Assembly: GCF_007748075.1 (NCBI RefSeq)
Contig: NZ_CP036280.1
Span: 3,300,001 to 3,332,000 of the forward strand
Reading direction: 5' to 3'
Source of the DNA: Mucisphaera calidilacus
GTDB taxonomy: Bacteria; Planctomycetota; Phycisphaerae; Phycisphaerales; Phycisphaeraceae
DNA: 32,000 bases
In this document: positions 10,901-29,587 of the stretch, piece after piece
Position numbering within the stretch: the first letter of the stretch is position 1
How the letters are laid out: every line of letters begins with the position of its first letter
Program-made: the position numbers and the translations under genes
Notes under the pieces: generated by a model
Databases searched by the model: none
What the model was told of the DNA's origin: nothing
Seen by the model: only the letters and a program-made list of their open reading frames with translations

Positions 10901-11000
10901 GCAGCGGGCTTCGTCATCCGAATCGATCTCGGGGGGAAGATGGGCCAGCGGACACCCGCTAGAATGCCCTCTCACCTGGTTACCTGAGGAGACCGCTTCC

Positions 11001-12323
11001 ATGCCGATCACGATAGAGATGCCACGACTCTCCGACACCATGGAAGAGGGAACCCTCCTCAAGTGGAACGTCGGCGTCGGCGACAAGGTCTCCGCGGGCG
11101 ACCACCTCGCGGACGTCGAGACCGACAAGGCCACCATGGAACTCCAGGCCTTCGAGGACGGCACCGTCGCCAGGATCCAGATCAACGAGGGCGACACCGT
11201 TCCGATCGGCGAGGTCATCATGGTCCTCGCCGGCGATGGCGAGTCGGTTGAAGACGCCGCCGCCGCCGAGGCTCCCTCGAGTGGTGATGCCGAAGGACCG
11301 CAAGCCGATGCGGACGACACATCATCCGATGACGCGGCCGCCGACGAGCCCGCGAAGTCTGCAGAGAGCGCTTCGGCCCCCAAGCCGTCCGGCGGCAAGA
11401 TCAAGGTCAGCCCGCTCGCCCGCAAACTCGCCGAGGAGAAAGGCGTCGACCTCGCCAGCATTCAGGGCACCGGTCCCGACGGACGCATCATCAAGCGTGA
11501 CATCCTCAAGGCCGCAGAGGGCGGCTCCCAGCAGTCAGGCTCCGCTCCGGCCAGCGAGGGCGTCATCAGCACCGAACCCATCGGAGCCGGCACCGCCGCG
11601 CCCGCCACCGCAGCCACGTCACTCGAGGCCAAGACCATCAAGCTCTCGGGCATGCGCAAGACCATCGCCCGCCGACTCGTCGAGAGCAAGACGACCGTCC
11701 CCCACTTCTCCGTCTCGGCCGCCGTCTCCATGGACGCGCTGCTCGAACTCCGCTCGACGCTCAACCAGCAGCTTGATGCCCAGAACGTCAAGCTCTCGGT
11801 GAACGACTTCATCCTCCGTGCCGTCGCGCTCGCCGCGGTTCAGCACCCCGTGGTCAACAGCTCCTGGGGCGGTGATTCGATCCAGCAGCACGGCACCGTG
11901 AACATCGGCATCGCCGTCGCCCTGCCCGAAGAGCGTGGCGGCGGACTCGTTGTGCCCGTCATCAACGACGTCCAGAACAAGGGTCTTCGCCAGATCTCGG
12001 CCGAGACCAAGGCGCTGGCCAAGAAGGCCCGCGAAACCGGCCTATCGCCCGAGGAGATGTCCGGCTCCACCATCGCGGTCTCCAACATCGGCATGTATGG
12101 CTCCGAGATGGTCGTGCCGATCATCAACCCGCCGAATGCCGTCATCATGGGCATCGGCGCAGCGCTGCAGCAGGCCGTGGTCAAGGATGGGCAGATCGTC
12201 CCAGGCTACGTCATGCGGGTCACGCTCTCGGGCGACCACCGCGTCGTCGACGGCGCGACCGCTGCCGAGTACCTCCAGACGCTCACCAGCATGCTCGAAC
12301 AACCCGCCGGCCTGCTGGTCTGA
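11001..12323 (+). CDS. pdhC: Dihydrolipoamide acetyltransferase (E2 component)
   Basis: N-terminal lipoyl domain (DVETDKATMELQAFEDG) followed by an Ala/Pro/Ser-rich linker. Then the peripheral subunit-binding domain (VSPLARKLAEEKGVDLASIQGTGPDGRIIKRDI) and a catalytic domain with DHRVVDG. GAGGAG lies upstream. Confidence 0.9.
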   Translation: MPITIEMPRLSDTMEEGTLLKWNVGVGDKVSAGDHLADVETDKATMELQAFEDGTVARIQINEGDTVPIGEVIMVLAGDGESVEDAAAAEAPSSGDAEGPQADADDTSSDDAAADEPAKSAESASAPKPSGGKIKVSPLARKLAEEKGVDLASIQGTGPDGRIIKRDILKAAEGGSQQSGSAPASEGVISTEPIGAGTAAPATAATSLEAKTIKLSGMRKTIARRLVESKTTVPHFSVSAAVSMDALLELRSTLNQQLDAQNVKLSVNDFILRAVALAAVQHPVVNSSWGGDSIQQHGTVNIGIAVALPEERGGGLVVPVINDVQNKGLRQISAETKALAKKARETGLSPEEMSGSTIAVSNIGMYGSEMVVPIINPPNAVIMGIGAALQQAVVKDGQIVPGYVMRVTLSGDHRVVDGATAAEYLQTLTSMLEQPAGLLV

Positions 12324-12346
12324 ACACCGCGATCTCACCTGGCGCA

Positions 12347-12381
12347 CAAAAAACCCGTCGGCAAACGCCGACGGGTTTCTT
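12347..12381. terminator. Bidirectional rho-independent terminator between convergent pdhC and the PEP-CTERM gene
   Basis: Perfect 10-bp stem ACCCGTCGGC-AAAC-GCCGACGGGT. It is flanked by AAAAAA on the 5' side (a U-tract for the minus strand) and TTCTTAT on the 3' side. Confidence 0.7.
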
Positions 12382-12401
12382 ATGGTTGTCATCTCTGTCG
12401 A

Positions 12402-13217
12402 TCAGCGGGCGCGACGCGTCGCGAGTGCCATCAGACCGAGGATGCCCGCACCGAAGGCAGCAGGCGTCGGAATGATGTTTGGCTCGAAATCATACGAGGC
12501 GCTGTAGCCGTCATGCCGAATGCTGACGTCGTCGAAGTAGGTCAGCATGCCCTGGTTGTAGGTTCCCACGCCGATGGAGACCTGAAGCAGTTCCGCGGAG
12601 AGCGCGTCGGTGTTCGCGGCGTTCAGCCACTGGTTCAGGGTCCAGAGCGGCGGGCCACCTCCACCGTTAGGCGTGCCGAAGCCGCCGGTGCCCCAGAACA
12701 GTCCGTTGTCAGCATCGATGTTGACCGTCTGCCAGTCGCCCGTCGGCACCGCGAGGCTTGCGCCGGGGTTACTCGGCTGGTTCCAGGTCGGTTCGTAGAT
12801 CAGCGTGATGAAACCATCGGGATCCTGCGTGGGCGTGGGGTTGAAGATGGTCAGCTTGAGTGACGGCGCCGCGAAAGCATTGCCGCCGCCCACCGCCTCC
12901 TTGTAGTAGCTGTAACTGAACGACAGCGTGCTGGTGATGTCCCCCATCGCGCCGTAGCTGTCCGCCACACCCACCTCGGCCTTGTCATCGTTGCTGAAGC
13001 CGGTCGTCAGCTTCGCGGCACCGATCGGCAGCGGCTGATTGGCTTCCAGATTCCCACCCGCGCCGGTCAGGTCCTCGATGCTCGCGACACCGCCGGCACG
13101 CACGTCATTCTCGTACCAGACACCCGGGCTCGGCGTGGAAGCAAACTCGTTAACCTCGATGCCGTACGCGGCTGTCGTGCACGCCACCATCAAAACCGCA
13201 GCAGTCGTTACTCTCAT
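12402..13217 (-). CDS. PEP-CTERM sorting-domain secreted protein (paralogous tail to 754..1659)
   Basis: Preferred ATG is 13217 (MRVTTAAVLMVACTTAAYG signal peptide, GAGAGGAAAGAG upstream). The C-terminus IPTPAAFGAGILGLMALATRRAR is near-identical in pattern to the tail of the 754..1659 protein. Confidence 0.8.
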   Translation of the reverse strand: MRVTTAAVLMVACTTAAYGIEVNEFASTPSPGVWYENDVRAGGVASIEDLTGAGGNLEANQPLPIGAAKLTTGFSNDDKAEVGVADSYGAMGDITSTLSFSYSYYKEAVGGGNAFAAPSLKLTIFNPTPTQDPDGFITLIYEPTWNQPSNPGASLAVPTGDWQTVNIDADNGLFWGTGGFGTPNGGGGPPLWTLNQWLNAANTDALSAELLQVSIGVGTYNQGMLTYFDDVSIRHDGYSASYDFEPNIIPTPAAFGAGILGLMALATRRAR

Positions 13218-13393
13218 GACTCTTTCCTCTCGCGTTGAATGTTGCTGATTCAGGTCTTCCCAACCTGTCATTCAAACGAGTGCACGGGCACGCGTCAACG
13301 ATAAAGTGCACTGATGCGCAAATAAACCGAGTTGGGCGCTAATAACGGCGCAGTCTCCAGCTCTCTGCCGCAGCCTGCTGACGCGGAAAGCGC

Positions 13394-14299
13394 TCAACTC
13401 TTTCTGTCCTGGGACGCCCGGCTCAGGTACTCGATCTTCGCCGACAGCGTCTTGTGATAGTTCAGCGGCACACGCATGGCACCCAGCTTCGCGCCGTGCT
13501 CTTTGCCATGGAAGTCTGATCCACCCGTCATCAGCAACCCCAGCCTTCTTGCATGGTGTGCCAGACCCTGACGCGTCCCCGCCTTCTGATCCGGGTGGAT
13601 GACCTCCACCCCCTGAAGACCCAACTCCCTCAGCCGGATCAACGCCCTGCCCAGAAGGTCACGGTCACGAGTCAGCTGTATCGGATGGGCCAGCACCGCG
13701 ACGCCGCCCGCGGCGCGGATCGTCTCGATCGCCCGCCCCGCCGACAACGCGTCCTTGCGCACGTAAGCCGGCGCACCTTCGCCGATGTAGCGACGAAACG
13801 CCTCGTGATGCGACCGCACATACCCCCTCTCCTGCAGCACCGCCGCGATGTGCGGCCGGCCGACGACGTTCGAACCGGTCGCGCTCGCCGAGGCCACCAC
13901 CTGCTCGTACGAGATCTTCACCCCCAGCGAATTGAGCCGGTCCACGATCTCCGGGTTCCGCTCGTTGCGGGCGTTGGCCAGCTCGTCGCACACCGCCTGA
14001 AGCGACGTGTCCGCCTCGTCGATGCCATATCCCAGAACGTGCAGCGTCCCCCAGTGGGCGTGCTCGTGGCGTTCGAGGATCGAGAACGGGTTCGCCGACA
14101 GCTCGATGCCCGGCAGAAACCCGATGCCAAGCCGCTCCGCGGCCGCGCGGGCGTCGGCGACACCCGCCGTGGTGTCGTGGTCCGTTAACGCGAACGCGCC
14201 CAGTCCCGCGGTCTGGGCAATCGAGGCAAGCTCGGACGGCGGGGTCAGACCGTCTGAAGCGGTCGAGTGGGCGTGCAGGTCACAGGTCTCGGTCGGCAT
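13394..14299 (-). CDS. PHP-domain phosphoesterase (TrpH/YciV-like)
   Basis: N-terminal CDLHAHSTASDG...ALTDHDTTAG metal-binding motifs, with later His motifs (LAHP, GGSDFHG). Start is ATG 14299 or the adjacent GTG 14302. Confidence 0.8.
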   Translation of the reverse strand: MPTETCDLHAHSTASDGLTPPSELASIAQTAGLGAFALTDHDTTAGVADARAAAERLGIGFLPGIELSANPFSILERHEHAHWGTLHVLGYGIDEADTSLQAVCDELANARNERNPEIVDRLNSLGVKISYEQVVASASATGSNVVGRPHIAAVLQERGYVRSHHEAFRRYIGEGAPAYVRKDALSAGRAIETIRAAGGVAVLAHPIQLTRDRDLLGRALIRLRELGLQGVEVIHPDQKAGTRQGLAHHARRLGLLMTGGSDFHGKEHGAKLGAMRVPLNYHKTLSAKIEYLSRASQDRKS

Positions 14300-14466
14300 C
14301 ACACCATGTTAGGTCAAGGATCAGGCGTGGAACGATGGAATCACGAGCCTTCCCCGCCGGTTGTTTCAGAGAAGGGTGAAGCAAGGCACGCTTCTGCCCC
14401 GATACTTTCTTTCATGGGCCGGCGTCCCCAACGCCAACTCGGTTCGAGAACAGGAGTCCCCTGAAT

Positions 14467-14994
14467 ATGTGCCCCTACCTCACGGAACCGGTCGACCACC
14501 TGCTGCGACCGTTATTCGAGAAACGCACCATCAACGAAACCATGCCAGGCCTCGTTACGCAGGGGCCGGGCGACCCCGAACTCGTCAACCTCGTCCGCGA
14601 CTACGTCCGGCAGGAACCCATCGCCAGCAAGCCCGAACTCGTCGCGGCCCTCTGGCTCTACGTCGACGAACTCGACGAGAGCCACAAGGTCAGCCAGGGG
14701 ATCGAGACCCCCACCGGCAGCTACTGGCACGCCATCATGCACCGCCGCGAGGGTGATTTCGACAACGCCAGGCACTGGTACCGCCGCGTCGGCATCCACC
14801 CCGCCCAGAGCCGCATCACCTCCGCGGGTGGCGGCGCCGGCTCCGGGACCGCCATCGGGCCCTTCGATCCCATCGACTTCGTCGACCGCGTGGAACGTGC
14901 CGTCCGCCGAGGCGACACCGATCTGCCCGAACTCGTCGCGATTCAACGCCGCGAGTGGCGTACGCTCTTTGAGTGGTGCCTGGAACACCTCTAA
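14467..14994 (+). CDS. Conserved hypothetical protein
   Basis: 175-codon ORF with protein-like composition and a distinctive block ESHKVSQG...GSYWHAIMHRREGDFDNARHWYRRVGIHP. I recognise no assignable family. The start is uncertain (an alternative Met lies at codon 26). Confidence 0.5.
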   Translation: MCPYLTEPVDHLLRPLFEKRTINETMPGLVTQGPGDPELVNLVRDYVRQEPIASKPELVAALWLYVDELDESHKVSQGIETPTGSYWHAIMHRREGDFDNARHWYRRVGIHPAQSRITSAGGGAGSGTAIGPFDPIDFVDRVERAVRRGDTDLPELVAIQRREWRTLFEWCLEHL

Positions 14995-15380
14995 CCCGAT
15001 CCCAGACCGCTCCCGTCTTCTTCTTCGATGGTGACTGCGGATTCTGCCAGCGATCCGTCCTCATGCTCATCCGCATGGACCCGGCCCGTGTGCTGCGCTT
15101 CGCGCCCCTCGCCGGCGAAACCGCCCGAACCCTCAACATCCCCGATGAACCGGGTGGCGGCACCGCCGTCTACCGCGACGCGCAGGGCACCGTCTGGCGC
15201 CTCAGCGACGCACCCCTCCGCGCACTCCGCGACACCGCCAGCCTCTGGAGCTGGACCGCGTGGCTCGGCTGGTGGGTGCCCCGACCCGTCCGCGACGCCG
15301 TCTACCGCTGGATTGCCAAACGCCGTCGGGGCCTGGTCACCACCTGCGTGCCCCTGCCCGAGGGACGGGTGCTCGCCTGA
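14973..15380 (+). CDS. Thiol-disulfide oxidoreductase DCC family protein (DUF393)
   Basis: PVFFFDGDCGFCQRSV carries the DGxCxxC signature near the N-terminus. GTG start (14973 or 14976) overlaps the upstream gene by about 20 nt. Confidence 0.75.
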   Translation: MVPGTPLTRSQTAPVFFFDGDCGFCQRSVLMLIRMDPARVLRFAPLAGETARTLNIPDEPGGGTAVYRDAQGTVWRLSDAPLRALRDTASLWSWTAWLGWWVPRPVRDAVYRWIAKRRRGLVTTCVPLPEGRVLA

Positions 15381-15383
15381 GAC

Positions 15384-16235
15384 TCACGCCGAGGGCTCGT
15401 GCGTGATGAAGTGCTGCGTCACCACAATGATGTCGTACATCGCGTGCGTCCCCGCCACGATCCCGAAGCCACGGAGCACGAAGACGCCCGAGAAGTAGAG
15501 ACCCGCAAACATGTAGAAGCCAAACCGGTACCAGTCGTGCGCGGTCCAGTCGAGCGGGTTCATCACGTCGAAGTGATAGACCGCGAACAACACCGCCGAG
15601 AGGATGACCGCCGACAGCGAACTCGCCGGCTCCGGCAACGCGAGCAGATCAGACAGAACCATGTGGATCAGCGAGATCGCGATCAGCCGAAACAGCAGCT
15701 CCTCGTAGATCCCCGCACCGATCGAAAACACCACGCCCTCCGGCCAGCTCGAAATACTCGCCAACGCGTCCGAGTTCGGCGACGCGGCGAGCATCGCCAA
15801 CTGCTCGGCGTCGGGCGGGTTGATCGGCTGCCGGAAGATCGTCGCCATCAGGATGATCAGCGGGATCGCCAGAAAAACCGACTCCACCCACATCAGACCC
15901 AGGGTCTTCGGCGCGGTCTTCCAGGGATCACGCCGGACCACGTGCCACACCAGCAACACCACCGTCACCAGGATGCCCGGCAGGTAATAGCCCGACACGC
16001 CCAGAACGTGGAAGAAGTCCGACATCAGCCGCTCCGCAAAAATCGGCGGCAGCCGCGTCCCGTGCGCCGGCGCAAGCCACCACGCGCCGAGCTCGTAAAT
16101 CACCAGCAGAGGCAGCAGAAAGAGCAGCGACTGCAGGGGCCAGCGGGTCTGCTCCCAGTAGGTCGGGTTGGCGCTCGGCTTCGGGATGTCCCGGTTGGCT
16201 CTGGCCATGGCGTGATCAGAATTCGAGGACCGCAT
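15384..16235 (-). CDS. CPBP family intramembrane glutamic endopeptidase (CAAX protease-like)
   Basis: Multi-pass membrane protein with motif 1 YEELLFR (EExxxR), motif 2 FAVYH (FxxxH) and motif 3 HAMYD (HxxxD). ATG 16235 overlaps the apt stop by 20 nt. The alternative ATG at 16208 would leave a 7-nt gap. Confidence 0.8.
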   Translation of the reverse strand: MRSSNSDHAMARANRDIPKPSANPTYWEQTRWPLQSLLFLLPLLVIYELGAWWLAPAHGTRLPPIFAERLMSDFFHVLGVSGYYLPGILVTVVLLVWHVVRRDPWKTAPKTLGLMWVESVFLAIPLIILMATIFRQPINPPDAEQLAMLAASPNSDALASISSWPEGVVFSIGAGIYEELLFRLIAISLIHMVLSDLLALPEPASSLSAVILSAVLFAVYHFDVMNPLDWTAHDWYRFGFYMFAGLYFSGVFVLRGFGIVAGTHAMYDIIVVTQHFITHEPSA

Positions 16236-16734
16236 GAATGTCGATCGGCCCGCCGATGTGCTCGCGACCCTTGAGCGCCAGCAACTCGATCAGCACCGTG
16301 ATCCCCACGATCTCTGCCCCGATGCCCGACACCAGATCGCAGCACGCCTTCATCGTGCCCCCCGTCGCCAGAAGATCATCCACCATCAGGATCTTCTCGC
16401 CCGGGTGCACCGCGTCGGCGTGGATCTCGAGGGTGTCCGAGCCGTACTCGAGGTCGTACGAAATCGCCTTCGTCTCCGCCGGCAGCTTGCCCGGCTTGCG
16501 GATCGGCACGAAACCCGCAGAAAGAGCCTGAGCGATCGCCGTCCCGAAGATAAACCCGCGTGACTCGGCCCCGCACACCTTCTGGATGCCCTGGCCGCGG
16601 TAAGGCGAGGCCATCATCTCGACCGCCAGAGCCAGACCGGCGGGGCTGCCCAGCAGCGGCGTGATGTCTTTGAACAGAATGCCCGGCTTCGGGAAGTCGG
16701 GGATGTCACGGATCAGGTCGGTGAGCTGGAGCAT
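16216..16734 (-). CDS. apt: Adenine phosphoribosyltransferase
   Basis: The last 172 codons of track ORF 16216..17874 read MLQLTDLIRDIPDFPKPGILFKDITPLL...GAESRGFIFG...ILMVDDLLATGGTMKA (PRPP-binding motif). The rest of that ORF is antisense to murA and was discarded. Confidence 0.9.
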   Translation of the reverse strand: MLQLTDLIRDIPDFPKPGILFKDITPLLGSPAGLALAVEMMASPYRGQGIQKVCGAESRGFIFGTAIAQALSAGFVPIRKPGKLPAETKAISYDLEYGSDTLEIHADAVHPGEKILMVDDLLATGGTMKACCDLVSGIGAEIVGITVLIELLALKGREHIGGPIDIHAVLEF

Positions 16735-16827
16735 GGCGTTCTCGGGCTGGGGTTTCGGCGGACACGCCAATGGTAGAAGATTTGGCACAGGTTGATGAGC
16801 CGGTGGTGATGTGGGACTTTGCCGACT

Positions 16828-18141
16828 ATGGATGCATTTGTCATTGAAGGCGGCCGACCCCTCCGCGGATCGGTCCGGGTCAACGGTTCCAAGAACGCCT
16901 CGCTGCCCCTCATGGCCGCGGCACTCCTCACCGACGAACCCGTCACCCTCCACGACGTGCCCCGGCTCTCGGACATCGGGAACATGGTCCGACTGCTCGA
17001 GGCTCTCGGCTGCACGGTCGAACGACCCGAAAACGCAGGCCGACTCAGCCTCCACGTCACCGACGACACACGCGTCGAGGCCCACTACGACATCGTCCGA
17101 ACCATGCGCGCCGGGATCTGCGTCCTCGGACCCCTCCTCGCCCGACGCGGACGGGCACGCGTCTCCATGCCAGGCGGATGCGCTATCGGCGACCGACCCG
17201 TCGACCTCCACCTCCGCGGGCTCAGGGCGCTCGGCGCCGAAATCCACCTCGAAGGCGGCTACATCGTCGCCACCTCCCCCGCCAACGGGACCGAACGCCT
17301 CCGCGGACGGAGCGTCTTCCTCGGCGGGCCCAACGGCTCCACCGTCCTCGGCACCGCCAACGTCATGTCCGCCGCGGCCCTCGCCGAGGGTGTCACCGTC
17401 ATCGAGTCCGCAGCATGCGAGCCCGAGGTCGAAGACCTCGCCGGCATGCTCAACGGCATGGGCGCGAAGATCACCGGCGCCGGCACGCCACGCATCACCA
17501 TCGAGGGCGTCGAGCGGCTCAGCAGCGTCGATCACACCGTCATGCCCGACCGCATCGAGGCCGGAACCTACGTCATCGCCTCCGCCATCACCAACGGCGA
17601 CATCGAGCTTGAGAACTACCCCGGCCAGACGCTCCTCGCCCTGCACGACCGACTCGAACAGGTCGGCGTCGAGGTCACCCCCGACGAAGCAGGCGACGGC
17701 TGGCGGCAGAGGGTCCGCATCAGCACCCGCCGACGACTCGAGCCGGTCCACGTCGTCACCCAGCCCCACCCCGGATTCCCGACCGACCTCCAGGCTCAGC
17801 TGATGGCCCTGCTCTGCCTCGCCGACGGCAACTCGATGGTGACCGAGAAGATCTTCCCCGACCGATTCCTCCACGTCGCAGAACTCCTCCGCATGGGCGC
17901 GAACCTGACCCGAACCGGGCCGAGTGTTCTCGTCTCCGGCGTCGGCGAACTCGTCGGCGCGCCGGTGATGGCGTCCGACCTCCGCGCCTCAGCCGGTCTG
18001 GTGCTTGCCGGCCTGGCGGCACGCGGGACGACCATCATCCGGCGGGTCTACCACCTCGACCGCGGCTACGAACGCATGGAACGGACACTCCAGGAACTCG
18101 GCGCGACCATCGAACGCGTCGATCAGGAAACCCTCGCGTGA
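16828..18141 (+). CDS. murA: UDP-N-acetylglucosamine 1-carboxyvinyltransferase
   Basis: MDAFVIEGGRPLRGSVRVNGSKNASLPLMAAALLTDEPVTLHDVPRLSDI is collinear with the MurA N-terminus. Also contains CAIGDRPVDLHL (active-site Cys loop) and a C-terminal HLDRGYERMERTL. ATG 16828 is preferred over the track TTG at 16819. Confidence 0.9.
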   Translation: MDAFVIEGGRPLRGSVRVNGSKNASLPLMAAALLTDEPVTLHDVPRLSDIGNMVRLLEALGCTVERPENAGRLSLHVTDDTRVEAHYDIVRTMRAGICVLGPLLARRGRARVSMPGGCAIGDRPVDLHLRGLRALGAEIHLEGGYIVATSPANGTERLRGRSVFLGGPNGSTVLGTANVMSAAALAEGVTVIESAACEPEVEDLAGMLNGMGAKITGAGTPRITIEGVERLSSVDHTVMPDRIEAGTYVIASAITNGDIELENYPGQTLLALHDRLEQVGVEVTPDEAGDGWRQRVRISTRRRLEPVHVVTQPHPGFPTDLQAQLMALLCLADGNSMVTEKIFPDRFLHVAELLRMGANLTRTGPSVLVSGVGELVGAPVMASDLRASAGLVLAGLAARGTTIIRRVYHLDRGYERMERTLQELGATIERVDQETLA

Positions 18142-18311
18142 GCGACGACAGCCTGGACAACTGGGTCGCGGTGCTCCGATGCCCCGTCACCGGCGAGAGG
18201 CTCCGACGCGAGGGCGAGGCTCTGGTCAGTGAGCAATCCGGCCTGCGCTACCCCATCGAGGACGGCCTCCCAATGCTGCTGTCCGAGCACGCCGTCATCA
18301 ATCCAGAGTGA
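18138..18311 (+). CDS. Trm112/YcaR-like small protein (UPF0434 family)
   Basis: Not in the ORF track (57 aa, below its apparent 60-aa floor). Own translation from GTG 18138: VSDDSLDNWVAVLRCPVTGERLRREGEALVSEQSGLRYPIEDGLPMLLSEHAVINPE*. The L.CP....L ... YPI.DG.P.LL pattern is typical of Trm112-like proteins. The GTG overlaps the murA TGA (GTGA). Confidence 0.6.
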   Translation: MSDDSLDNWVAVLRCPVTGERLRREGEALVSEQSGLRYPIEDGLPMLLSEHAVINPE

Positions 18312-18347
18312 ACTATGTTTTTGTCCTGAATGGGTTAAGATCGGTGT

Positions 18348-19217
18348 ATGCCCTCCGAGACCCCATCACTGGACCGAGCTCACAGCAGCCACCCCCGGCA
18401 CTGGCGGCAGTTCCGCGTCGTCTATCCCGTCATGAGCCGCCGCTCGGGCGGGCTGTCGGTCGGCATCAACCTCAGCCCCGACGGCCTGTGCAACTTCGAC
18501 TGCACCTACTGCCAGGTCGATCGCTCGAAGCTCGCCGAGAACGCCCCGGTTGACCTTGACGAACTGCACGGCGAGCTGTCGGTGATGCTCGGCCTGATCC
18601 GCTCGGGCGATTTCTGGACCGACCCTGACTTCGAGGGACTGCCCGAGGACCGGCGGGTGCTCCGCGACCTCTCGTTCTCAGGCAACGGCGAGCCGACCGC
18701 TTCGCCGCTCTTCCCCGCCGCCGTCGATATGGTCCTCGGCCTGCGCGACGCGTCGGGCCTGGACGGCGTGAAAGTCGTCGTGATCACCAACGGGACGCTG
18801 CTGCACCGCGAGCCGGTGAAGAAGGCGATCGGTCGGCTGGGCGACCGCGGCGAGGTATGGGCCAAACTCGACGCGGGGACACAGGCTTACTACGAGAAGA
18901 TTGATCGCTCGGCGGTGCCGCTGGAGCGTTCGGTCGGCAACATGGTGCAGGCGTCGCAGGTCCATCCCCTGACGATCCAGACGATGCTGCTGCGGGACTC
19001 GAGCGGGCCGATGCCCGACACGGAGTTCATGGCCTACATCGCGCGGCTGCGGACGATACTGGACCGGGGCGGCGTGATCACGGGCGTGCAGCTCTACACG
19101 GTCGCGCGTGAGCCCCAGGAATCGGATGTTGAGCCGTTGACGGAGGAAGAGCTGGAGCAGCGTGCGGCCCAGTTGCGCGACGCATTGCCCGAGCTGGATG
19201 TTCGGATTTACCCGTGA
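18348..19217 (+). CDS. Radical SAM domain protein (subfamily not assignable by eye)
   Basis: GINLSPDGLCNFDCTYCQV contains the CX3CX2C cluster motif. LSFSGNGEPT is the GGE-like SAM-binding motif, followed by VVVITNGTLL and VWAKLDAG strands typical of the partial TIM barrel. Confidence 0.8.
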   Translation: MPSETPSLDRAHSSHPRHWRQFRVVYPVMSRRSGGLSVGINLSPDGLCNFDCTYCQVDRSKLAENAPVDLDELHGELSVMLGLIRSGDFWTDPDFEGLPEDRRVLRDLSFSGNGEPTASPLFPAAVDMVLGLRDASGLDGVKVVVITNGTLLHREPVKKAIGRLGDRGEVWAKLDAGTQAYYEKIDRSAVPLERSVGNMVQASQVHPLTIQTMLLRDSSGPMPDTEFMAYIARLRTILDRGGVITGVQLYTVAREPQESDVEPLTEEELEQRAAQLRDALPELDVRIYP

Positions 19218-19478
19218 CGGGGGTGGCGATGTCGCGCACAACGTGACAACTTTACAGATTTTTGCGCTTTTTCGGGTTCAGTAAACACTGCTAACCGGCT
19301 GTTAAACGCTGTTAACGGTCGGGAATGGGTCGGTTTTGGCCGAAAACGGGCTGTTTTCGCGCACAATCTGACACGCGCGACCCCTTGAAAGGTCGCCTTT
19401 GTGCGCGCCGGCCCTTCAGGCGGGATTGGGGGTGCAATCGCGTACTGCTTTGTGGTTTTTGTCTGTCGGGTGTAAGGG
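19218..19478. other. AT-richer intergenic spacer with repeated motifs; candidate oriC-associated or regulatory region
   Basis: A 17-mer TCGCGCACAA-NN-TGACA occurs twice (19232-19248, 19357-19373). Its 9-mer core CGCGCACAA occurs a third time inverted (19399-19407). There is a tandem GCTGTTAA(A)CG (19298-19317) plus GCTGTTTTCG (19350-19359), and a hairpin GCGACC-N8-GGTCGC (19377-19396). The spacer lies next to the + strand GC-skew sign change. Confidence 0.35.
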
Positions 19479-20045
19479 TTGGCGGTCGGGCGGTACCCAG
19501 ACATGTGGGAAGGTGACGTGTTGCCTGAGCGTGAAGAACAATCCGTCTTTCTTGAGTGGCTCGATTCGCACAGCGGGTCGGTGCTCAAGGTCGCTCGGGC
19601 CTACACGCTGACACACGAGGAGTGTCAGGACCTGGCGCAGGAGATCCTGATGCAGGCTTGGAGGTCTCTGCCGGGTTTCGAGGGTCGGGCGCGCCCGTCC
19701 ACGTGGTTCTACCGGGTGGCGCTGCAGACAGCGATGAACTGGAAGCGGAATGACCAGAAACGGCGTCGGTGGCAGAAGCCGCTGCTGGAGCTGGAGGCGG
19801 TCGGGCCGGAGGGGTTGAATGGCGAGGTGCGTGCCGAGCATCGGGAGACGGTGGAGCGGCTGTACGCGGCGATTCACCGGCTGCCCAAGGCGGATACGGC
19901 GCTGGTGCTGCTTTATCTGGAGGCTTTGAGCTACCGGGAGATGGCGGAGGTTCTGGGGCTGTCGGAGAGTCACGTGGGCGTGAAGCTGAACCGTGCGAAG
20001 AAGGCGTTGCGTGTGTTGATGGAAGGGGATGGCGATGAAGCCTGA
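19479..20045 (+). CDS. ECF-type RNA polymerase sigma factor (sigma-70 family, group 4)
   Basis: Region 2 (DLAQEILMQAWRSLPGFEGRARPSTWFYRVALQTAMNWKR) and region 4 HTH (LPKADTALVLLYLEALSYREMAEVLGLSESHVGVKLNRAKKAL). The start is uncertain (ATG 19479, ATG 19503 or GTG 19518). Confidence 0.85.
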   Translation: MAVGRYPDMWEGDVLPEREEQSVFLEWLDSHSGSVLKVARAYTLTHEECQDLAQEILMQAWRSLPGFEGRARPSTWFYRVALQTAMNWKRNDQKRRRWQKPLLELEAVGPEGLNGEVRAEHRETVERLYAAIHRLPKADTALVLLYLEALSYREMAEVLGLSESHVGVKLNRAKKALRVLMEGDGDEA

Positions 20046-21165
20046 TCCGTTGCAGGAGGCTTGGGGTGCGCAGGGCGGGGGCGTGCGCGTGACCAAAGAG
20101 GGTGCTCTGCTGCTGCGTGAGGTTCAGCGGAACCAGCGCTATCTCGATCAACTCGTGCGCCTGCGCGACTACCGCGAGGTGGGTGTGGCGCTGATGCTGA
20201 TCGTGGCGTGGTTCGCGATGTCGCTGCTGGTGCCCGAGATGCTGTGGACGTGGTACCTGAGCGTGCCCATGTTCATCTGGATCACGGTCTTCATGCTGGT
20301 GTTCCGTCATCGGTATGGGTTGTTGCGTAGCCGCGCGGATGACGCGCTGGTTGAGCAGGCTCGTGAGAGCCTGCGTCAGGTGGAGGACCAGATCTGGCTG
20401 CTGCGAAACGTGATGTGGTGGTACATCCTGCCGTTGACGGTCCCGGGGGCGATCTGGGCCGTGCACCTGGGCGTGGCGACGTCGGATTCGGGTGTGTGGG
20501 AGTCGGCGGTGCTGACGCTGATGCTGCTGGGGCTGTTTGTCTTCGTGGTTTGGATGACGTATCGCGTGAATCGTGTTGCGGTGCGGGATGAGCTGGAGCC
20601 GCGTCGCGATGAGTTACTTGAGCTGCTGCGTGGACTGGATGTGGAAGCCGATGAGGAGAACGCGATGACGGGTCGCCAGCGTTTCGGTTTTGGCGGGTAT
20701 CTGGGCATGCTGCTGGTGGTTTGTGTGATCTCGGCGGTTGTGCTCCCGACGGGTCTGGCCGCGACGGAGTGGGTTCGGGGTGTGGTGACAACGCCTCCCG
20801 TTGAGGGTGTGGATTTCCCGCGTCTGTCGCCTTTCGAGGCGGTCGACTGGGGTGACGGTGATTCATCGGTGCCGAGGGTCAAGGTCGACGGGGTGTGGTA
20901 TTTCCTGGGATCGATCGACGCGGTGCCCATTGATGATCTGGTTGAGTTCAGCAAGGCGACGTACGGCGAGCGCTGGCAGAAGCGTATTGATGAAGACCTC
21001 GTGGAGGTGATGACGCTGATGGGGCATGCGCCGGGCGAGACGGTGCGGCTGCGGATGGTCACCGTCGAGACCACCGAGTTCGCGTTCCTGAAAGATGTGG
21101 CGATGACCGAGGCGAACCGCAGGGCGGTTCGCGAGGCACGGCGTGGGGGTGAAGTTTCGCCTTGA
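20035..21165 (+). CDS. Multi-pass membrane protein co-transcribed with the ECF sigma factor; putative non-canonical anti-sigma or sensor partner
   Basis: The ATG at 20035 overlaps the sigma-factor stop codon (ATGAAGCCTGA) and GGAAGGGG lies 6 nt upstream. About 5 hydrophobic helices (VALMLIVAWFAMSLLV, WYLSVPMFIWITVFMLVF, WWYILPLTVPGAIWAVHLGV, AVLTLMLLGLFVFVVWMTY, YLGMLLVVCVISAVVLP) precede a ~130-aa soluble C-terminal domain. The functional call rests on gene context only. Confidence 0.5.
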   Translation: MKPDPLQEAWGAQGGGVRVTKEGALLLREVQRNQRYLDQLVRLRDYREVGVALMLIVAWFAMSLLVPEMLWTWYLSVPMFIWITVFMLVFRHRYGLLRSRADDALVEQARESLRQVEDQIWLLRNVMWWYILPLTVPGAIWAVHLGVATSDSGVWESAVLTLMLLGLFVFVVWMTYRVNRVAVRDELEPRRDELLELLRGLDVEADEENAMTGRQRFGFGGYLGMLLVVCVISAVVLPTGLAATEWVRGVVTTPPVEGVDFPRLSPFEAVDWGDGDSSVPRVKVDGVWYFLGSIDAVPIDDLVEFSKATYGERWQKRIDEDLVEVMTLMGHAPGETVRLRMVTVETTEFAFLKDVAMTEANRRAVREARRGGEVSP

Positions 21166-22233
21166 TCAGCCGAGTTGTTTGAAGCCTTGTTCGAGCATCT
21201 CGGCGGTCATGTCCCAGCCGATGCACTCGTCGGTGACGGAGACGCCTCGTTTGAGCTGGGTGAGGTCGCCGGGGATGTCCTGCCGGCCGGGTTCGAGGTT
21301 GGACTCGATCATGACGCCTGTGATGGGGCAGTCGTTCTGCCGGCGTTGCTGGAGGATGGAGTTCCAGACGACCTGCTGCTGCTCGTGCTTCTTGCCTGAG
21401 TTGGCGTGTGAGCAGTCGACCATGATGCCGGCGGGGAGGCCAGCGGCTTTGAGTTTCTGGGAGGCTTCGGCGACGTTCTCGGGGTCGTAGTTAGTTTTGC
21501 CGGAGCCGCCTCGGAGGATGACGTGGCCCCAGCGGTTGCCGGTGGTGGCGACGACGCAGCAGCGTCCGTCCTCGTCGACGCCTAGGAAGTGGTGGGGTGC
21601 CTTGGCGGACTTCATGGCGTCGATGGCGACCTGGAGGTTGCCGTCGGTGGCGTTTTTGTAGCCGACGGGCATGGAGAGGCCGGAGGCCATCTGCCGGTGT
21701 GTCTGCGACTCGGTGGTGCGTGCGCCGATGGCGGCCCAGGAGACCATGTCGTCGAGGTACTGGGGTGTGAAGGGGTCTAGGAACTCGGTGGCGGTGGGGA
21801 GTCCCATGGCGGTGATGTCGAGGAGGAGTTTGCGTGCGATGCGCAGGCCCTCGGACATCTGGAAGCTGCCGTCGAGGAGGGGGTCGTTGATGAGCCCTTT
21901 CCAGCCGACGGTGGTTCGCGGTTTTTCGAAGTAGGTCCGCATGACGATGACCATGCGGTCGGTGTAGGCGGCTCGGCAGGCGAGGAGTCGTTCGGCGTAT
22001 TCGAGGGCGGCGTCGGGGTCGTGGATGGAGCAGGGCCCGATGACGACGAGGAGCCTGGGGTCTTCGCCTGAGAGGATGGCCTTGATGGTGTTGCGTGACT
22101 GGATGACGGTTCGTCGGCTGGCGTCGGAGAGGGGGAGTGCCTGCTCGAGGTCGCGTGGCGCGGTGAGGGGCGTGATGGACTGGACGTGGACGTTCTGGGT
22201 GGGCGTCAGGTCGACGTTCTGGGGGGTGGTCAC
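21166..22233 (-). CDS. aroG: 3-deoxy-7-phosphoheptulonate (DAHP) synthase, class I
   Basis: [51 protein letters not shown] and DCSHANS are class I-alpha DAHP synthase motifs. GTG start at 22233 with GGAG 7 nt upstream. The isozyme type (F/G/H) cannot be determined. Confidence 0.9.
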
Positions 22234-22331
22234 CGCGTGGCTCCGGTCGTGGGGGGCTGGGTCCGATCGGTGGGATCGGACGGACTAGTGTATCGACCGG
22301 ATCGAGGTTCACATGTTGTTAGCGTGCGGGG

Positions 22332-23546
22332 TTATTCGGGTCTTCGGATGACGTATCCGACGCCGCCTCGTCCGATCCATGCCCGTGCGAGTTCGTGGTT
22401 TCGGTAGATGACGCCGTTGCCGCGGTCGCGTGAGGCGGAGTCGTTGACGATGGCGTCGCCCTCGGGGGTGAGCCCGCGGATGGTGATGAGGTGTCCGTCG
22501 GTGGAGCGCATGACGTTGGAGGGGAATTCGTCGCGTCGGAATCGGATGGAGCAGATGATGGGCTGGCCTTGTGCGATATAGGCCTGGACCTGTCTCCAGT
22601 CGCGGACGCGGACGAGTTCGCCTTCGAGTCCGTGGTGTGAGGCATAGGCGACGGCGCGGTGCCAGTTGCCGAAGATCCGGTTTTCGCGGTCGAAGATGGC
22701 GAAGGCGTTGGTGCGTGTGGGCATGTCGACGCCGAAGTAGGCCATGACCATGGAGGTGGAGGTGGGTGAGCAGATGCGTCCGCGGATGGACTGGTGTTCG
22801 ATGCCCTGGGGTCGGAAGGGGACGGGCAGGTCACGGGCCCAGCCGGCGGGTGGTTCGGGGCTTGTCGTGACGAGGTCGGGGTCGACGCCGTCTTCGATCC
22901 GTCCGGAGTAGACGGTGACGAGTTTGCGGAGCGTGGGCTTGTCGTCGGTTTCGAGGGAGAAGGATTCGAGTCGAGCCTGGAGCTGGTAGGTGTCGGCGGG
23001 CTGGTTGAGGACGAGGTAGTCGATCTCGATTTTGCCGCGGGCGAATTGTGTGGTGACGGGTCGGGAGGGGTCGCGGTCGCCCCAGCTGCCGAGGTAGAGC
23101 CATGGCGACCATTCGCCGGTGGCGATGTCGCGGGCTCGGACGAAGAAGGAGGCGGCGGTGTGTTCGGGCGTGTGGAGGTTCCAGGAGGGCAGGATTTCGG
23201 AGACGGGGAACTCGGTGCGGATTTCGGGTGAGGTCCAGGTGCCGACGCGAGGGTAGCGTTGGCTGTTGTTGGGGAGGGTGATCTCGCCGGTGGGGAGGGT
23301 GATGATGCCTGAGGAGGTGCCTTCGGCCCAGTCGGAGGGGTCCTGATAGCGGACGGTGCGGTCGGCGAAGCGGTAGGGGTTATTGAGCCAGCGTTCGCTG
23401 GGGAAGTCCTCGATGCCTGTGTTGGGCTCGGTGGTCTGAGGCGTGGGTTCGGGCTGTTGTTCTTCTGTGCTGGTGAGGATGGCGCAGCCGGTCAGTGAGG
23501 CGAGGGCGAGGGTCAGGAACAGGATCGCTGGGAGGCGATGCTTCAT
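22332..23546 (-). CDS. Lipoprotein with C-terminal peptidase C39-like (papain-fold cysteine peptidase-like) domain
   Basis: MKHRLPAILFLTLALASLTGC is a signal peptide with lipobox LTGC. The C-terminal half has RGRICSPTSTSMVMAYFG (candidate catalytic Cys context) and DGHLITIRG (candidate His), as in Peptidase_C39_2-type domains. The N-terminal ~230 aa are unassigned. Confidence 0.6.
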   Translation of the reverse strand: MKHRLPAILFLTLALASLTGCAILTSTEEQQPEPTPQTTEPNTGIEDFPSERWLNNPYRFADRTVRYQDPSDWAEGTSSGIITLPTGEITLPNNSQRYPRVGTWTSPEIRTEFPVSEILPSWNLHTPEHTAASFFVRARDIATGEWSPWLYLGSWGDRDPSRPVTTQFARGKIEIDYLVLNQPADTYQLQARLESFSLETDDKPTLRKLVTVYSGRIEDGVDPDLVTTSPEPPAGWARDLPVPFRPQGIEHQSIRGRICSPTSTSMVMAYFGVDMPTRTNAFAIFDRENRIFGNWHRAVAYASHHGLEGELVRVRDWRQVQAYIAQGQPIICSIRFRRDEFPSNVMRSTDGHLITIRGLTPEGDAIVNDSASRDRGNGVIYRNHELARAWIGRGGVGYVIRRPE

Positions 23547-23575
23547 GGTTTTCTCCGTGTGTGGTCGGGACGGTT

Positions 23576-24394
23576 TTAGAAGTCCCAGATCTGGTTCCAG
23601 GCGGTCATCCAGTCGTCGGCTTTGCTCTGGACCTTGAGGGGTTCGACGAGTGTGACGCCATGGCGGCCGAGGAACCGTCTTGCGGTGTCGACGGTTGAGA
23701 GTTCGACGGTGATGGTGCAGGGCGATGCGGGCACCCAGGGCTGGACGCGTTGTTTGTCGAGGTTTTCAAGGGCTCGTCGTGCGCCGGCCTGAATGAGGTC
23801 GCGGGCGACCTTGGGGGGTTTGTGTCGAGCGGAGAACCGTGAGAGTCCGGTTTTGACGGCGACGGCTTCGAGCCCTTCGCCGAGGAGTTCGGTTCCCTCG
23901 CGGCAGGTGACGTCGTCGCCGGTGATGAGGGCGACGGGCACGCCGTGGTGTCCGCAGAGGGCGGTGTTGATGCCGAACTCGCCGACGGAGGTGTCGTTGA
24001 AGATGAGGTTGTCCCAGGTGGTGGTGGAGATGGTGTGGCACATGACGCCCAGGGGCGTTCCGGCCTTGGCGTGCATGCCGACCATGAGTGCGGCGTCGCA
24101 GCCTGTTTCGAACATGTGGGTGTAGCGTCCCCAGGGGTGGTGGGCGACGTATTCGCAGCGTGGGTCGAGTCGTTCGGCGAGGAGGGAGTTGAAGGAGCAG
24201 TCGTCGCCGGCGCCGTGGCAGTCGACGACGTGGATCTCGGTGGCGCCGGCCTCGGCGGCTCCGCGGACGGCGGCGTTGATCTCCTCGGTGTAGAGGAGGC
24301 GGCCTTCTTCGTAGCGTTGCCCGTCGCGGTCGACCATATCCCAGGTACAGATCCCTGAGACGCCTTCCATATCGCTCATGATGAGGACGCGCAT
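23576..24394 (-). CDS. Peptidase M55 family, D-aminopeptidase DppA-like
   Basis: MRVLIMSDMEGVSGI is the characteristic M55 N-terminus, with later HVVDCHG and MVGMHA. ATG 24394 (AGGGAAG upstream) is preferred over the track start at 24433. Confidence 0.8.
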   Translation of the reverse strand: MRVLIMSDMEGVSGICTWDMVDRDGQRYEEGRLLYTEEINAAVRGAAEAGATEIHVVDCHGAGDDCSFNSLLAERLDPRCEYVAHHPWGRYTHMFETGCDAALMVGMHAKAGTPLGVMCHTISTTTWDNLIFNDTSVGEFGINTALCGHHGVPVALITGDDVTCREGTELLGEGLEAVAVKTGLSRFSARHKPPKVARDLIQAGARRALENLDKQRVQPWVPASPCTITVELSTVDTARRFLGRHGVTLVEPLKVQSKADDWMTAWNQIWDF

Positions 24395-24690
24395 GTGTTG
24401 TCTTCCCTGTGCCACCGGGTTTGCAGGCTGCAATGGTGAGCATCATACCCTGAGGGCGGTTGGGTGTGGATGGTCTGGCGTGTGTTTGCGACTCGTGTTC
24501 GTGGCGTGTGGTTGTAGCGATCAGGCTGTTTTCGGCTGTTTTTTTCGGACTCTGGGCGGTTAAGTGAAGGGTGTGTGTGGTCGATGCGTATCCATGTGGC
24601 CATGGTCCGGAAACGGATTCGGGCGGGGCCAGGCGTCGGCGGGCGTTGTGTGCGTCAGCCGTGGGACGAGTTCACCGTTAGGGGACAGCG

Positions 24691-25131
24691 ATGTTGCGTG
24701 ACTGGATTGGGTGTCGTTGGTTGGTTGCGACGGCGGGGGTGGGCATGACGTTGACCCTGGGCGGCTGCATGATGGGTGACAAGCTGCATCTCGATCTGGA
24801 GGCGCCGCGTGGTTCGACGGTGACGTACCGGGGCGACACGGACCCGATGCCGGCGTCGCTGGCGGTGCCGCGGCCGGGGAAGGTGGGCGCGAAGGCGTAC
24901 CGCAAGGAGCTTGAGTTCGAGTTCATCCTCGGCGGCGAGCCGATCGAGGCGGAGGGTGTGCTCGAGACGTACGGGTACGAGGAGCACGATGTTGACCGGC
25001 TGTCGAAGAACTTTCTGAAGATTCAGCCGTCGCACATCCGCGACATCGAGCGTGGGTCGGCGATTGTGCTCAACGGCACGTCGGCGAGCGGACAGCACAT
25101 TTACCAGTTGACGGTCGGCCAGAGCCGCTGA
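24691..25131 (+). CDS. Putative lipoprotein, unknown function
   Basis: N-terminus ...VATAGVGMTLTLGGCMMGD has a lipobox-like LGGC. Protein-like composition. Lies 28 nt upstream of the next lipoprotein gene on the same strand. Confidence 0.5.
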   Translation: MLRDWIGCRWLVATAGVGMTLTLGGCMMGDKLHLDLEAPRGSTVTYRGDTDPMPASLAVPRPGKVGAKAYRKELEFEFILGGEPIEAEGVLETYGYEEHDVDRLSKNFLKIQPSHIRDIERGSAIVLNGTSASGQHIYQLTVGQSR

Positions 25132-25159
25132 GGCGGCGTTGATCTGACGGGAGAAAGCG

Positions 25160-26008
25160 ATGAAGCGAGTGATGCTTGGTGCGTGGATGTCGTGTGCGCT
25201 GGGCGTGATGAGCCTGGGCGGCTGCGCGGTGTTCGGGGGTGGTGCTGCCGAGCCGGAGGTCTCGCGGTCGCACCTGCCGGTGATCGGGTTGTCGACGGCG
25301 GCGGTGTTTGTGGAGTATGGCAGCGACTGGACGGACCACCGCTGGCAGAGCGGGATTGATCAGGCGATCTGGAAGCTGGTCCAGCCGGTTGGCCGGGTGG
25401 ATGACGCGGTGGCGGAGCCGGGCGGCACAGCGTTTCGGGCGCGTGCCCGGTCAAAGGATGAGGGTTTTGCTGCCGGGCACAACGCGGGCGTGATTGCCGG
25501 AGCGACCTCGGCGCGGGTGCCCTCGTCGGGTTACGCGTTGGCGGATCGCTCGTCGACAATGAGTTATGCCGATACAACGCGGAGCCGTGTGTCGGGCGAG
25601 GTGATCGGTCACGTGACGACGTCGTATGCGGCGCGTCAGCGGACGGGCACGCGTGTTTATGCTCAGTACAGCGAGTCGAGTGCGGTGTCTTCGGGTCGCG
25701 AGCAGCGATCGGTTCGTCCGGTGCTGGAGGTGTCGGTCGAGGCGTTGCCCGAGTACGTGATCCCGGGTGATCTGGCTGAGCTCGAGGTGACGGTGCGCAA
25801 TCTCTCGGAGGTTCTGGCGACGGGTGCCGCGTTGCACCTGCAGCTGCCGGCGGGTGCGCGGGTGCGTGACATCGACGGCGCGAAGCTGGTCAACGAGGAT
25901 GCCGAGGGCGTGTTGTTGTCGGTGGGCAAGGTGAAGCCGGAGGCGGCGCTGCGTGTGGCTTTGAGCGTGGAGGTCGGCTTGCCGATTTCGGTGGCGATGG
26001 CGGATTGA
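25160..26008 (+). CDS. Putative lipoprotein with C-terminal DUF11/CARDB-like beta-sandwich segment
   Basis: MKRVMLGAWMSCALGVMSLGGCAVFGG has lipobox LGGC, with GGGAGAAAG upstream. The C-terminal LEVSVEALPEYVIPGDLAELEVTVRNLSEVLATGAALHLQLPAGARV resembles DUF11-type repeat domains (by eye). Confidence 0.55.
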   Translation: MKRVMLGAWMSCALGVMSLGGCAVFGGGAAEPEVSRSHLPVIGLSTAAVFVEYGSDWTDHRWQSGIDQAIWKLVQPVGRVDDAVAEPGGTAFRARARSKDEGFAAGHNAGVIAGATSARVPSSGYALADRSSTMSYADTTRSRVSGEVIGHVTTSYAARQRTGTRVYAQYSESSAVSSGREQRSVRPVLEVSVEALPEYVIPGDLAELEVTVRNLSEVLATGAALHLQLPAGARVRDIDGAKLVNEDAEGVLLSVGKVKPEAALRVALSVEVGLPISVAMAD

Positions 26009-26950: not shown

Positions 26951-26977
26951 GCGTGGATGGTATCCGAGTGGGGTGAT

Positions 26978-27562: not shown

Positions 27563-27663
27563 GGGTGGTTCCTCTCTGCCTGAACAGGGTACCTGTGGGG
27601 CGGGTGCGGGGTTCGTGGAAGTTGGCGACGGGCGGGGGTTTGGTCCGATATCCCGGTTACGCC

Positions 27664-29577: not shown

Positions 29578-29587
29578 GAGCGGGCTG

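Follow-up and report, generated by a model that had tools for sequence, protein, structure and literature searches.

Does replication of the Mucisphaera calidilacus chromosome begin at the point where its strand composition changes sign, or is that point a trace of past changes in the direction of replication? We addressed this question in a 32,000-nt stretch of the chromosome (contig NZ_CP036280.1, positions 3,300,001 to 3,332,000; hereafter the window), whose + strand switches from C-rich to G-rich at about 18.8 kb. An earlier reading of this sequence, here called the original prediction, had proposed the switch as a candidate replication origin (oriC) unlinked to dnaA. With a probability of roughly 0.55, we consider the switch to be a junction between two segments with different replication-direction histories that does not itself initiate forks. 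The oriC reading is not established.

The composition of the two sides differs strongly. All nine of the 60-nt G and C counts of the original prediction were reproduced exactly. Between 3,901 and 18,790 the + strand has 4441 G and 5269 C (GC skew -0.085, AT skew +0.070), and between 18,791 and 32,000 it has 5437 G and 3112 C (GC skew +0.272, AT skew -0.208). The chi-square for this difference is 583 for G/C (p ~1e-128) and 191 for A/T. Within the window, the cumulative G-C curve has its minimum at 18,722 and the cumulative keto curve at 18,547. This confirmed the sign change that had been placed near 18.7-19.3 kb and located it at 18.8 kb, where the AT skew flips as well. The sign was also said to be independent of gene orientation, and genes on both strands do agree within each block: mean skews are -0.109 (+ genes) and -0.066 (- genes) on the left, and +0.260 and +0.289 on the right. 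The coding strand has only a small effect, an excess of C of about 0.09-0.15 at third codon positions, which leaves this picture unchanged. Since GC and AT skew change together and their sign does not follow the direction of transcription, the data support a replication-type strand asymmetry.

Part of this pattern is what an oriC should show, namely a joint switch of GC and keto skew that runs from negative to positive and is not explained by gene orientation. The original prediction was right that this polarity is the one expected at diverging forks. It also held that the whole left side was richer in C than in G, which is true only for about 3.9-18.8 kb; in 1-3.9 kb the skew is about 0 to +0.04. 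An origin should further have comparable and far-reaching amplitude on both arms, whereas the arms here are very unequal (-0.085 versus +0.272). The negative arm has about one third of the amplitude of the positive arm overall, and half to three quarters of it at third codon positions, and it ends at about 1.7 kb.

We next placed the switch by a change-point fit that used third codon positions only; all genes between 16.8 and 21.2 kb lie on the + strand. The best single step falls within a radical-SAM gene (Table 1), where the third-position G fraction among G+C rises from about 0.28-0.34 to about 0.71. A logistic fit gave a width of just 242 nt, with a small shoulder from about 17.74 kb. The radical-SAM gene accordingly has third-position G:C counts of 47:87 in its 5' half and 78:41 in its 3' half, while its orthologues are uniform along the gene, at about 1:6 in one relative (locus L004) and about 8:1 in another (L002). 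The non-coding spacer between the radical-SAM and sigma factor genes, which had been singled out as the nearest non-coding DNA, is not the site of the change: the step lies about 430 nt away inside a conserved open reading frame (ORF), and a step forced into the spacer fits 28 log-likelihood units worse. No RNA genes, tRNAs, promoter-like or terminator-like sites were found at the switch. Nor does it resemble a terminus, as its polarity is opposite to the positive-to-negative change of a terminus, and the 32-kb window contains no XerCD dif-like site (best match 17/28 positions).

Table 1. Features of the window, in window coordinates
Feature	Position	Strand	Description
Two secreted-protein genes, one LTD-like, one PEP-CTERM (QDU72884.1)	2-1,659	-	Non-syntenic with any relative
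Left border of block K	1,560-1,805		Second third-position step, at the PEP-CTERM/HD junction
Block K	1,806-18,790		Weakly reversed skew (+ strand: C>G, A>T)
BamA-PDH-orf289 insertion	5,549-13,271		7.7 kb between the acyl-CoA synthetase and PHP genes
Radical-SAM gene (QDU72901.1) holding the switch	18,348-19,217	+	Intact, full length; follows murA and a Trm112-like ORF, as in relatives
Change point of strand bias	18,780-18,812		Third-position step, best single step 18,790
Block C	18,791-32,000		Strong, uniform skew (+ strand: G>C, T>A)
261-bp spacer upstream of the ECF sigma gene	19,218-19,478		40%-GC stretch at 19,246-19,305

The negative arm proved to be a bounded segment, which we call block K, with a step on each side (18,790 and about 1.6-1.8 kb), as expected of a reversed block. 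Pfam matches bore out the gene content given earlier on both sides of the switch. Block K holds HD-domain, DUF1559 and AMP-binding acyl-CoA synthetase genes, followed by BamA, PDH E1a, orf179, E1b, E2 and orf289, and then by PHP, orf175, DCC1, Rce1, phosphoribosyltransferase, MurA, the Trm112-like ORF and the 5' half of the radical-SAM gene. Block C, to the right, holds the 3' half of that gene, the spacer, an ECF sigma factor, orf378, DAHP synthase (AroG), C39 and M55 peptidases, and the genes through to a MptE/Maf-like protein and a SPASM radical-SAM protein. On the + strand, the third-position skew of block C is +0.32 to +0.53 in + genes and +0.58 to +0.70 in - genes. By gene, that of block K ranges from +0.17 to -0.50, mostly between -0.04 and -0.50, with orf289 at +0.10. 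The genes of block K thus stand about 0.4-0.9 of the way from the block C state to its mirror image.

At the left border, which has positive-to-negative polarity, the third-position G fraction falls from 0.69 to 0.475, with the best step at about 1.6-1.8 kb in a fit to the minus-strand genes of 2-8,155. There is a smaller additional step near 3.6 kb, and a linear trend fits worse than steps. This border is a synteny break with the relatives and overlaps the lowest-GC 60-mer of the window (1,723-1,782). The two secreted-protein genes beyond it again have positive + strand third-position skew (+0.41 and +0.33). We considered a diffuse terminus for the left part, an idea taken from the gradual positive-to-negative transition of Poriferisphaera corsica described below, and found it unsupported, given that steps fit better than a trend and no dif-like site is present. 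The borders relate differently to gene-order breakpoints: the left one coincides with a breakpoint, while the right one lies 430 nt inside the radical-SAM gene and has its nearest scar in the adjacent spacer, where a DUF1569 gene was lost and 220 bp of new DNA gained.

Block K also contains an insertion. The acyl-CoA synthetase and PHP genes are adjacent, without the insert, in relatives L001, L002 and L024, in which BamA lies about 9-10 kb away, across the HD gene. The inserted BamA-PDH segment includes two ORFs of unknown function, and the window's BamA is parted from skp/lpxD/lpxC, which come after BamA in L024.

We then compared the syntenic loci of relatives. The original prediction had named absence of the switch from closely related genomes as grounds for its own refutation, and such an absence was indeed observed. 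The switch is absent from the syntenic place in four relatives of three lineages (loci L001-L004 and L024). L002 and L003, from a Phycisphaeraceae lineage of metagenome-assembled genomes (MAGs), keep the gene order of the window all the way from HD to SPASM. Collinearity across the junction holds for these two and for L024, which is closely related to L002; all three have uniform skew on both sides of the radical-SAM gene (+0.3 to +0.45). L004 has the most similar radical-SAM protein (75% identity, a value that no relative in the collections searched exceeds) and a uniform skew of about -0.35; there, the segment from PHP to the radical-SAM gene is inverted between the acyl-CoA synthetase and sigma genes, with a breakpoint directly past the radical-SAM gene. 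L001/L023, from a 3.25-Mb contig of Mucisphaera sp., has positive skew for 21 kb up to the radical-SAM gene and then about 7 kb near +0.05. The M55-C39-AroG genes of L001 are physically inverted relative to the window, with skew near -0.1, and synteny again breaks right past the radical-SAM gene. The gene order murA-trm112-rSAM (rSAM being the radical-SAM gene) is common to L001-L004 and L024. No synteny with the window was found in two complete genomes, ZRK34 and a 3.9-Mb MAG.

Weak reversed blocks also occur in these relatives. In L024 and L002, the genes FAA-AccD-98aa make up a weak reversed block of 2.2 kb, sharply bordered in intergenic DNA, whose third-position skews are -0.24 to -0.43, compared with +0.7 to +0.87 in the surroundings; the L024 block ends at the 98aa/HD junction. 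A negative-to-positive switch at position 714 of L002 had raised the possibility that the relatives' own origin lies in this neighbourhood, but L024 shows it to be the border of this 2.2-kb block within positive skew. Origin-type borders of weak reversed blocks in relatives number about three in the 125-150 kb sampled.

P. corsica (L026, CP036425 3,930,515-3,951,426), from the same sequencing study, carries the syntenic genes at 91.7% of its record. Its + strand passes from a weak positive block (third positions +0.15 to +0.47) to strong negative skew (-0.6 to -0.87). This transition is smooth and centred on the acyl-CoA synthetase gene, and it is either a block border or a terminus unusually near the start of the record. 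Block K is collinear with its flanks as in L002 and L024. However, the radical-SAM and AroG genes share a strand in P. corsica, L004 and L001, whereas the window and the L002 group have them on opposite strands. One side of the junction has therefore been turned repeatedly with respect to the other.

A second, gradual negative-to-positive transition was seen in L024 (1-4,500), over the co-directional bamA-skp-lpxD-lpxC genes. The third-position G fraction rises from 0.24 in BamA to 0.38 in OmpH/Skp, about 0.55 in LpxD and 0.85 in LpxC. The operon is conserved and leaves no room for a spacer. This transition is the nearest counterpart of the in-ORF step of the window.

The usual hallmarks of an origin were sought around the switch. 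No DnaA box within two mismatches of TTATCCACA occurs in 18,000-19,700, although the Planctomycete box may diverge from TTATCCACA. The two sites within one mismatch of TTATCCACA in 32 kb match chance expectation, and the variant boxes TTGTCCACA, TGATCCACA and TTTTCCACA are absent near the switch. There is no DnaA-box cluster in non-coding DNA at the switch, nor one anywhere in the 32-kb window. Searches for a barrier motif, an initiator gene and an iteron array likewise came up empty. The lowest 60-nt GC contents near the switch are 0.40 (19,246-19,305) and 0.42 (18,295-18,354) against a background of 0.64, which is modest and not repeated, and the skew step itself lies in ordinary coding DNA. 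A tblastn search with E. coli DnaA found no dnaA in the window or in any of the relatives' loci retrieved, and dnaN, parAB, gidAB and rpmH-rnpA are missing from the annotated genes of the window. The original prediction had likewise seen no dnaA, dnaN or parAB in these 32 kb. The switch is therefore neither linked to the usual origin neighbours nor conserved in relatives.

The spacer does have features of its own. Its part at 19,218-19,440 (about 220 bp) has no counterpart in the relatives, which carry the DUF1569 gene there, while its last 40-70 bp resembles the region upstream of the sigma gene in L004. Three exact copies of CGCGCACAA, the sole ones in 32 kb, lie at 19,233-19,241 (+), 19,358-19,366 (+) and 19,399-19,407 (-), and two of these belong to a direct repeat of 17 nt, TCGCGCACAAnnTGACA, whose copies are 125 bp apart. 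The triplet falls within the 175 bp upstream of a pair formed by the ECF sigma gene and a putative anti-sigma gene. It may serve as a binding site for a regulator or belong to an unusual element. The spacer was also considered as a translocated copy of an origin-like spacer of the relatives, an idea dropped when no similarity was found.

The position of the window on the chromosome bears on where an origin may lie. M. calidilacus Pan265 (GenBank CP036280) has 2,913 genes and no plasmid (PMC8882080), and its chromosome measures 3,486,541 bp. The radical-SAM protein of the window matches an M. calidilacus protein at 100% identity. The + strand of the window is that of the record, as GenBank protein numbers increase along it; the radical-SAM protein comes six proteins before 'hypothetical protein Pan265_27830', the product of the ORF at 24,691-25,131. 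By our estimate of its position, the window lies about 95% into the record, about 160 kb short of its end. A pipeline published by the same laboratory sets dnaA as the first gene (PMC5177795), from which we infer the same for CP036280. If the record begins at dnaA, this gene lies roughly 160 kb downstream of the switch, and the strong positive skew of the window at about 95% of the record then implies that the origin, wherever exactly it is, lies at least about 160 kb upstream of dnaA. This speaks for the readings that place an origin here. The published M. calidilacus genome description and related papers contain nothing on skew or origin.

Taken together, we favour a junction of replication-direction histories. 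The switch would be the right-hand border of a discrete 17-kb block (about 1.8-18.79 kb) whose composition is reversed relative to both flanks, at about half amplitude. The leading strand of this clade turns extremely G- and T-rich, so that its bias acts as a slowly relaxing record of replication direction. In the M. calidilacus lineage, block K or its flanks would have been turned relative to fork movement, and present-day forks would pass through the junction without beginning there. Considering that the right border lies within an intact, conserved ORF, the right join would then have to stem from homologous exchange, as opposed to an illegitimate break. The exchange may have been an inversion via a repeated copy of the 3' part of the radical-SAM gene, or a homology-anchored replacement of block K. 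The left border would be an ordinary synteny breakpoint. The data show the block with its two step-like borders and reduced amplitude, the missing origin hallmarks, the absence of the switch in relatives and the similar weak blocks there; a rearrangement or recombination as the cause, and the choice of the side that was turned, are inferred.

Several observations argue for this reading. The block is bounded by two steps, and both of its flanks are G-rich on the + strand. Its amplitude is reduced, and similar weak reversed blocks occur in relatives with extreme skew. Both junctions are rearrangement hot spots, as seen from the breaks past the radical-SAM gene in L004 and L001, the 98aa/HD border in L024, the DUF1569 swap and the movement of BamA-PDH into block K. 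The orientation of the radical-SAM gene to AroG differs among the genomes compared. Origin hallmarks were not found, and L001-L004 and L024 do not have the switch. Moreover, reversed blocks are frequent while an origin is unique, so the prior favours a block. A history junction thus accounts for a block that is bounded and of reduced amplitude, for a left border at a synteny break, for the scars at both junctions and for the likeness to blocks in relatives.

Other observations weigh against it. The border lies 430 nt inside an intact radical-SAM ORF, both halves of which are orthologous to those of relatives, which rules out a simple inversion as its producer; a history junction accounts for this border only with some homologous exchange, and no simple model explains the in-ORF step. 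The window contains no second radical-SAM copy and no inverted repeat longer than 41 nt, so the repeat or donor that the exchange calls for is hypothetical. Block K is collinear with both neighbours as in L002 and L024, and internally arranged as in L001. A history made of rearrangements alone would therefore have to include two inversions, the second undoing the first, or a separate convergence on this gene order. Although positive, the left flank is weaker than block C (+0.33 and +0.41 versus about +0.6) and is not a clean context. Per-gene distances give no clearly different ancestry to the genes of blocks K and C. Finally, the step is the nearest candidate position for an origin that probably lies upstream of dnaA in any case.

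Three related ideas were tried and set aside. Inverted repeats flanking block K, like a second radical-SAM copy, were not found in the window. Import of block K from a distant lineage was rejected because per-gene distances group K and C genes alike, and only the two halves of the radical-SAM gene differ. A comparison of codon positions 1+2 with position 3 first hinted that block K is moving toward negative skew. We judged it unreliable because positions 1+2 had moved as far as position 3 in the inverted block of L001, and because amino-acid baselines differ between lineages.

The two halves of the radical-SAM protein differ in their similarity to relatives. The N-terminal half is 69% identical to that of L004 and 67-68% to those of L001 and L002, and the C-terminal half is 81% identical to L004 and just 60-64% to L001 and L002. 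This identity break (window 18,348-19,217 compared with L004 10,001-10,870) coincides with the skew step.

The chief alternative is that the 18.79-kb step marks an initiation site born in this lineage and lacking canonical DnaA boxes, either a relocated principal origin or a secondary, quasi-unidirectional one with a fork barrier nearby. We regard this as unlikely overall. An origin would explain the polarity, the step within an intact ORF and the collinearity with L002. It would leave unexplained the weak, short left arm with positive skew beyond it, the missing hallmarks, the 430-nt offset from the spacer and the emergence between ancestrally adjacent genes. In its principal form, which on its own is a little less probable still, the present origin at about 18.8 kb would have been acquired or relocated after the split from the nearest sequenced relatives. 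Block C would always have been replicated rightward, and block K, formerly replicated rightward, would now be replicated leftward, with its bias part-way to a new equilibrium. The lineage-specific 220-bp spacer, with its three CGCGCACAA boxes and AT-richer stretch, would be part of a non-canonical origin, with dnaA found about 160 kb further downstream and on the leading strand. The right polarity, the joint flip of GC and AT skew and the independence from gene strand all fit such an origin. A step in an intact ORF of a region collinear with outgroups is what an in-place change of direction would produce, unlike a simple inversion. The skew of block C is strong and uniform, with the same polarity relative to its own genes as in all relatives; the exact CGCGCACAA copies fall within DNA that the relatives do not have; and the locus precedes the record's probable dnaA start by about 160 kb, so placed that dnaA would be co-directional with the fork. 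However, DnaA boxes are missing from 18,000-19,700 at two mismatches and clusters of them from the window, and AT-richness is mild. The step lies 430-690 nt from the spacer, within which a step is rejected by 28 log-likelihood units, and the weak left arm is gone after 17 kb, with positive skew beyond. None of the relatives examined has the switch, and an origin would have had to be inserted between two ancestrally adjacent genes with just about 220 bp of new DNA, by a mechanism that is undocumented. The frequency of origin-type block borders in relatives also lowers the prior for any one of them being the sole origin.

The secondary form, which we consider very improbable, would have nearly the whole chromosome replicated rightward. 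The leftward fork from an initiation site at about 18.8 kb would meet a barrier at about 1.7 kb after only some 17 kb, or the site would fire in only part of the cycles. It would account for the bounded leftward block, its step borders and the positive skew on both outer sides; the intermediate amplitude of block K suits part-time leftward replication; and both origin-type and terminus-type transitions occur in this syntenic neighbourhood across genomes. Against it, such an architecture has no known precedent in a bacterial chromosome, the barrier motif, initiator gene and iteron array were not found, and the 2.2-kb block of L024 shows that small bounded blocks arise without it. Conversely, block K could be native and block C the turned piece, which we hold to be improbable, but less so than the secondary origin. 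The window would then belong to the replichore with the lagging + strand and, like the syntenic region of P. corsica, would sit upstream of an origin close to dnaA. Block C, measuring at least 13 kb, would have been inverted recently and still keep its former bias at full strength, and the left flank would be another displaced piece. The syntenic genes of P. corsica lie at 91.7% of the record, with radical-SAM and AroG genes both on the + strand and strongly negative skew, and the radical-SAM gene of M. calidilacus matches it in orientation, skew sign and approximate record position. The window's AroG is inverted relative to P. corsica, L004 and L001, and full amplitude is expected of a fresh inversion. 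This would nevertheless leave no part of the 32-kb window in the expected strongly negative context and would require two separate positive blocks flanking K. Block K, moreover, should show full negative amplitude, yet it is weak. The in-ORF border is as much a problem here, and the argument depends on a record start at dnaA taken from the laboratory's published pipeline.

How does the locus compare with known systems? Like origins called from cumulative GC-skew minima (Ori-Finder/DoriC type), it has a negative-to-positive G-C and keto switch that is independent of transcription and lies beside a non-coding spacer. Unlike them, the window lacks a DnaA-box cluster, a marked AT-rich unwinding element and the usual neighbour genes, its arms are very unequal with a negative arm of 17 kb, and the switch lies in coding sequence and is absent in collinear relatives. 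Origins unlinked to dnaA do exist, and the E. coli oriC lies about 42 kb from dnaA. Local skew inversions derived from rearrangement offer another comparison. They share with block K a discrete, step-bordered block of reduced amplitude with one border on a synteny breakpoint, and the neighbourhood is heavily rearranged, with clear cases in relatives (FAA-AccD-98aa in L024/L002 and M55-C39-AroG in L001). Unlike such cases, block K is not inverted relative to the closest collinear relatives and has no flanking repeats now, and its right border in an intact ORF needs homologous exchange or an in-place cause. Junctions inside a reading frame that leave the gene intact are also known from Hin/Gin/Cin-type and shufflon switches and from homology-facilitated illegitimate recombination. 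The last of these, following DNA uptake, joins one homologous end (here the radical-SAM gene on the right) to one illegitimate end (the synteny break on the left). In contrast to these systems, no recombinase gene, second radical-SAM segment or donor lineage was found, and block K spans 17 kb with essential genes (BamA, PDH, MurA). The resemblance is thus at the level of mechanism only.

If the switch is only the border of a block, it would be an ordinary outcome of genome rearrangement made unusually visible by the strand bias of the clade. With GC skew of 0.3-0.5 and third-position G:C of up to 8:1, this bias is among the strongest we know of in bacterial sequence, and it places borders to within a few tens of bases. 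Genomes of the clade could therefore be used as natural material to date inversions and to gauge the rate at which strand bias relaxes. If the switch is an origin, it would document a relocation without local rearrangement, lacking recognisable DnaA boxes, in a phylum with little-studied replication control. In that case, the incomplete relaxation of the bias in block K would time the relocation like a molecular clock.

The extreme strand bias was seen in window positions 18,791-32,000 and over the whole loci of L002, L003, L004, L009, L015, L024 and L026. In this group, GC skew is 0.3-0.5 over tens of kb, with T>A alongside G>C, and third-position G:C reaches about 8:1 in the radical-SAM gene of L002 and 1:6 in that of L004. 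In the other family members that the same query retrieved, skew is weak and departs from zero by no more than about 0.1.

Some minor features of the loci remain. In L001, positions 5,000-7,000 have a GC content of 0.52-0.56 compared with 0.64 elsewhere, and carry a NodZ-like fucosyltransferase gene and a 152-aa ORF inside the block from PHP to the radical-SAM gene; this stretch is probably a recent insertion. The Trm112-like ORF that precedes the radical-SAM gene in the window has 57 codons (18,138-18,311) and overlaps the murA stop by 4 nt (GTGA). The 'maf locus' of the original prediction corresponds to a protein with a MptE-like/Maf N-terminal domain (702 aa) followed by a SPASM-domain radical-SAM protein (556 aa), at 27,469-31,258, and this pair is kept in L002 and L003.

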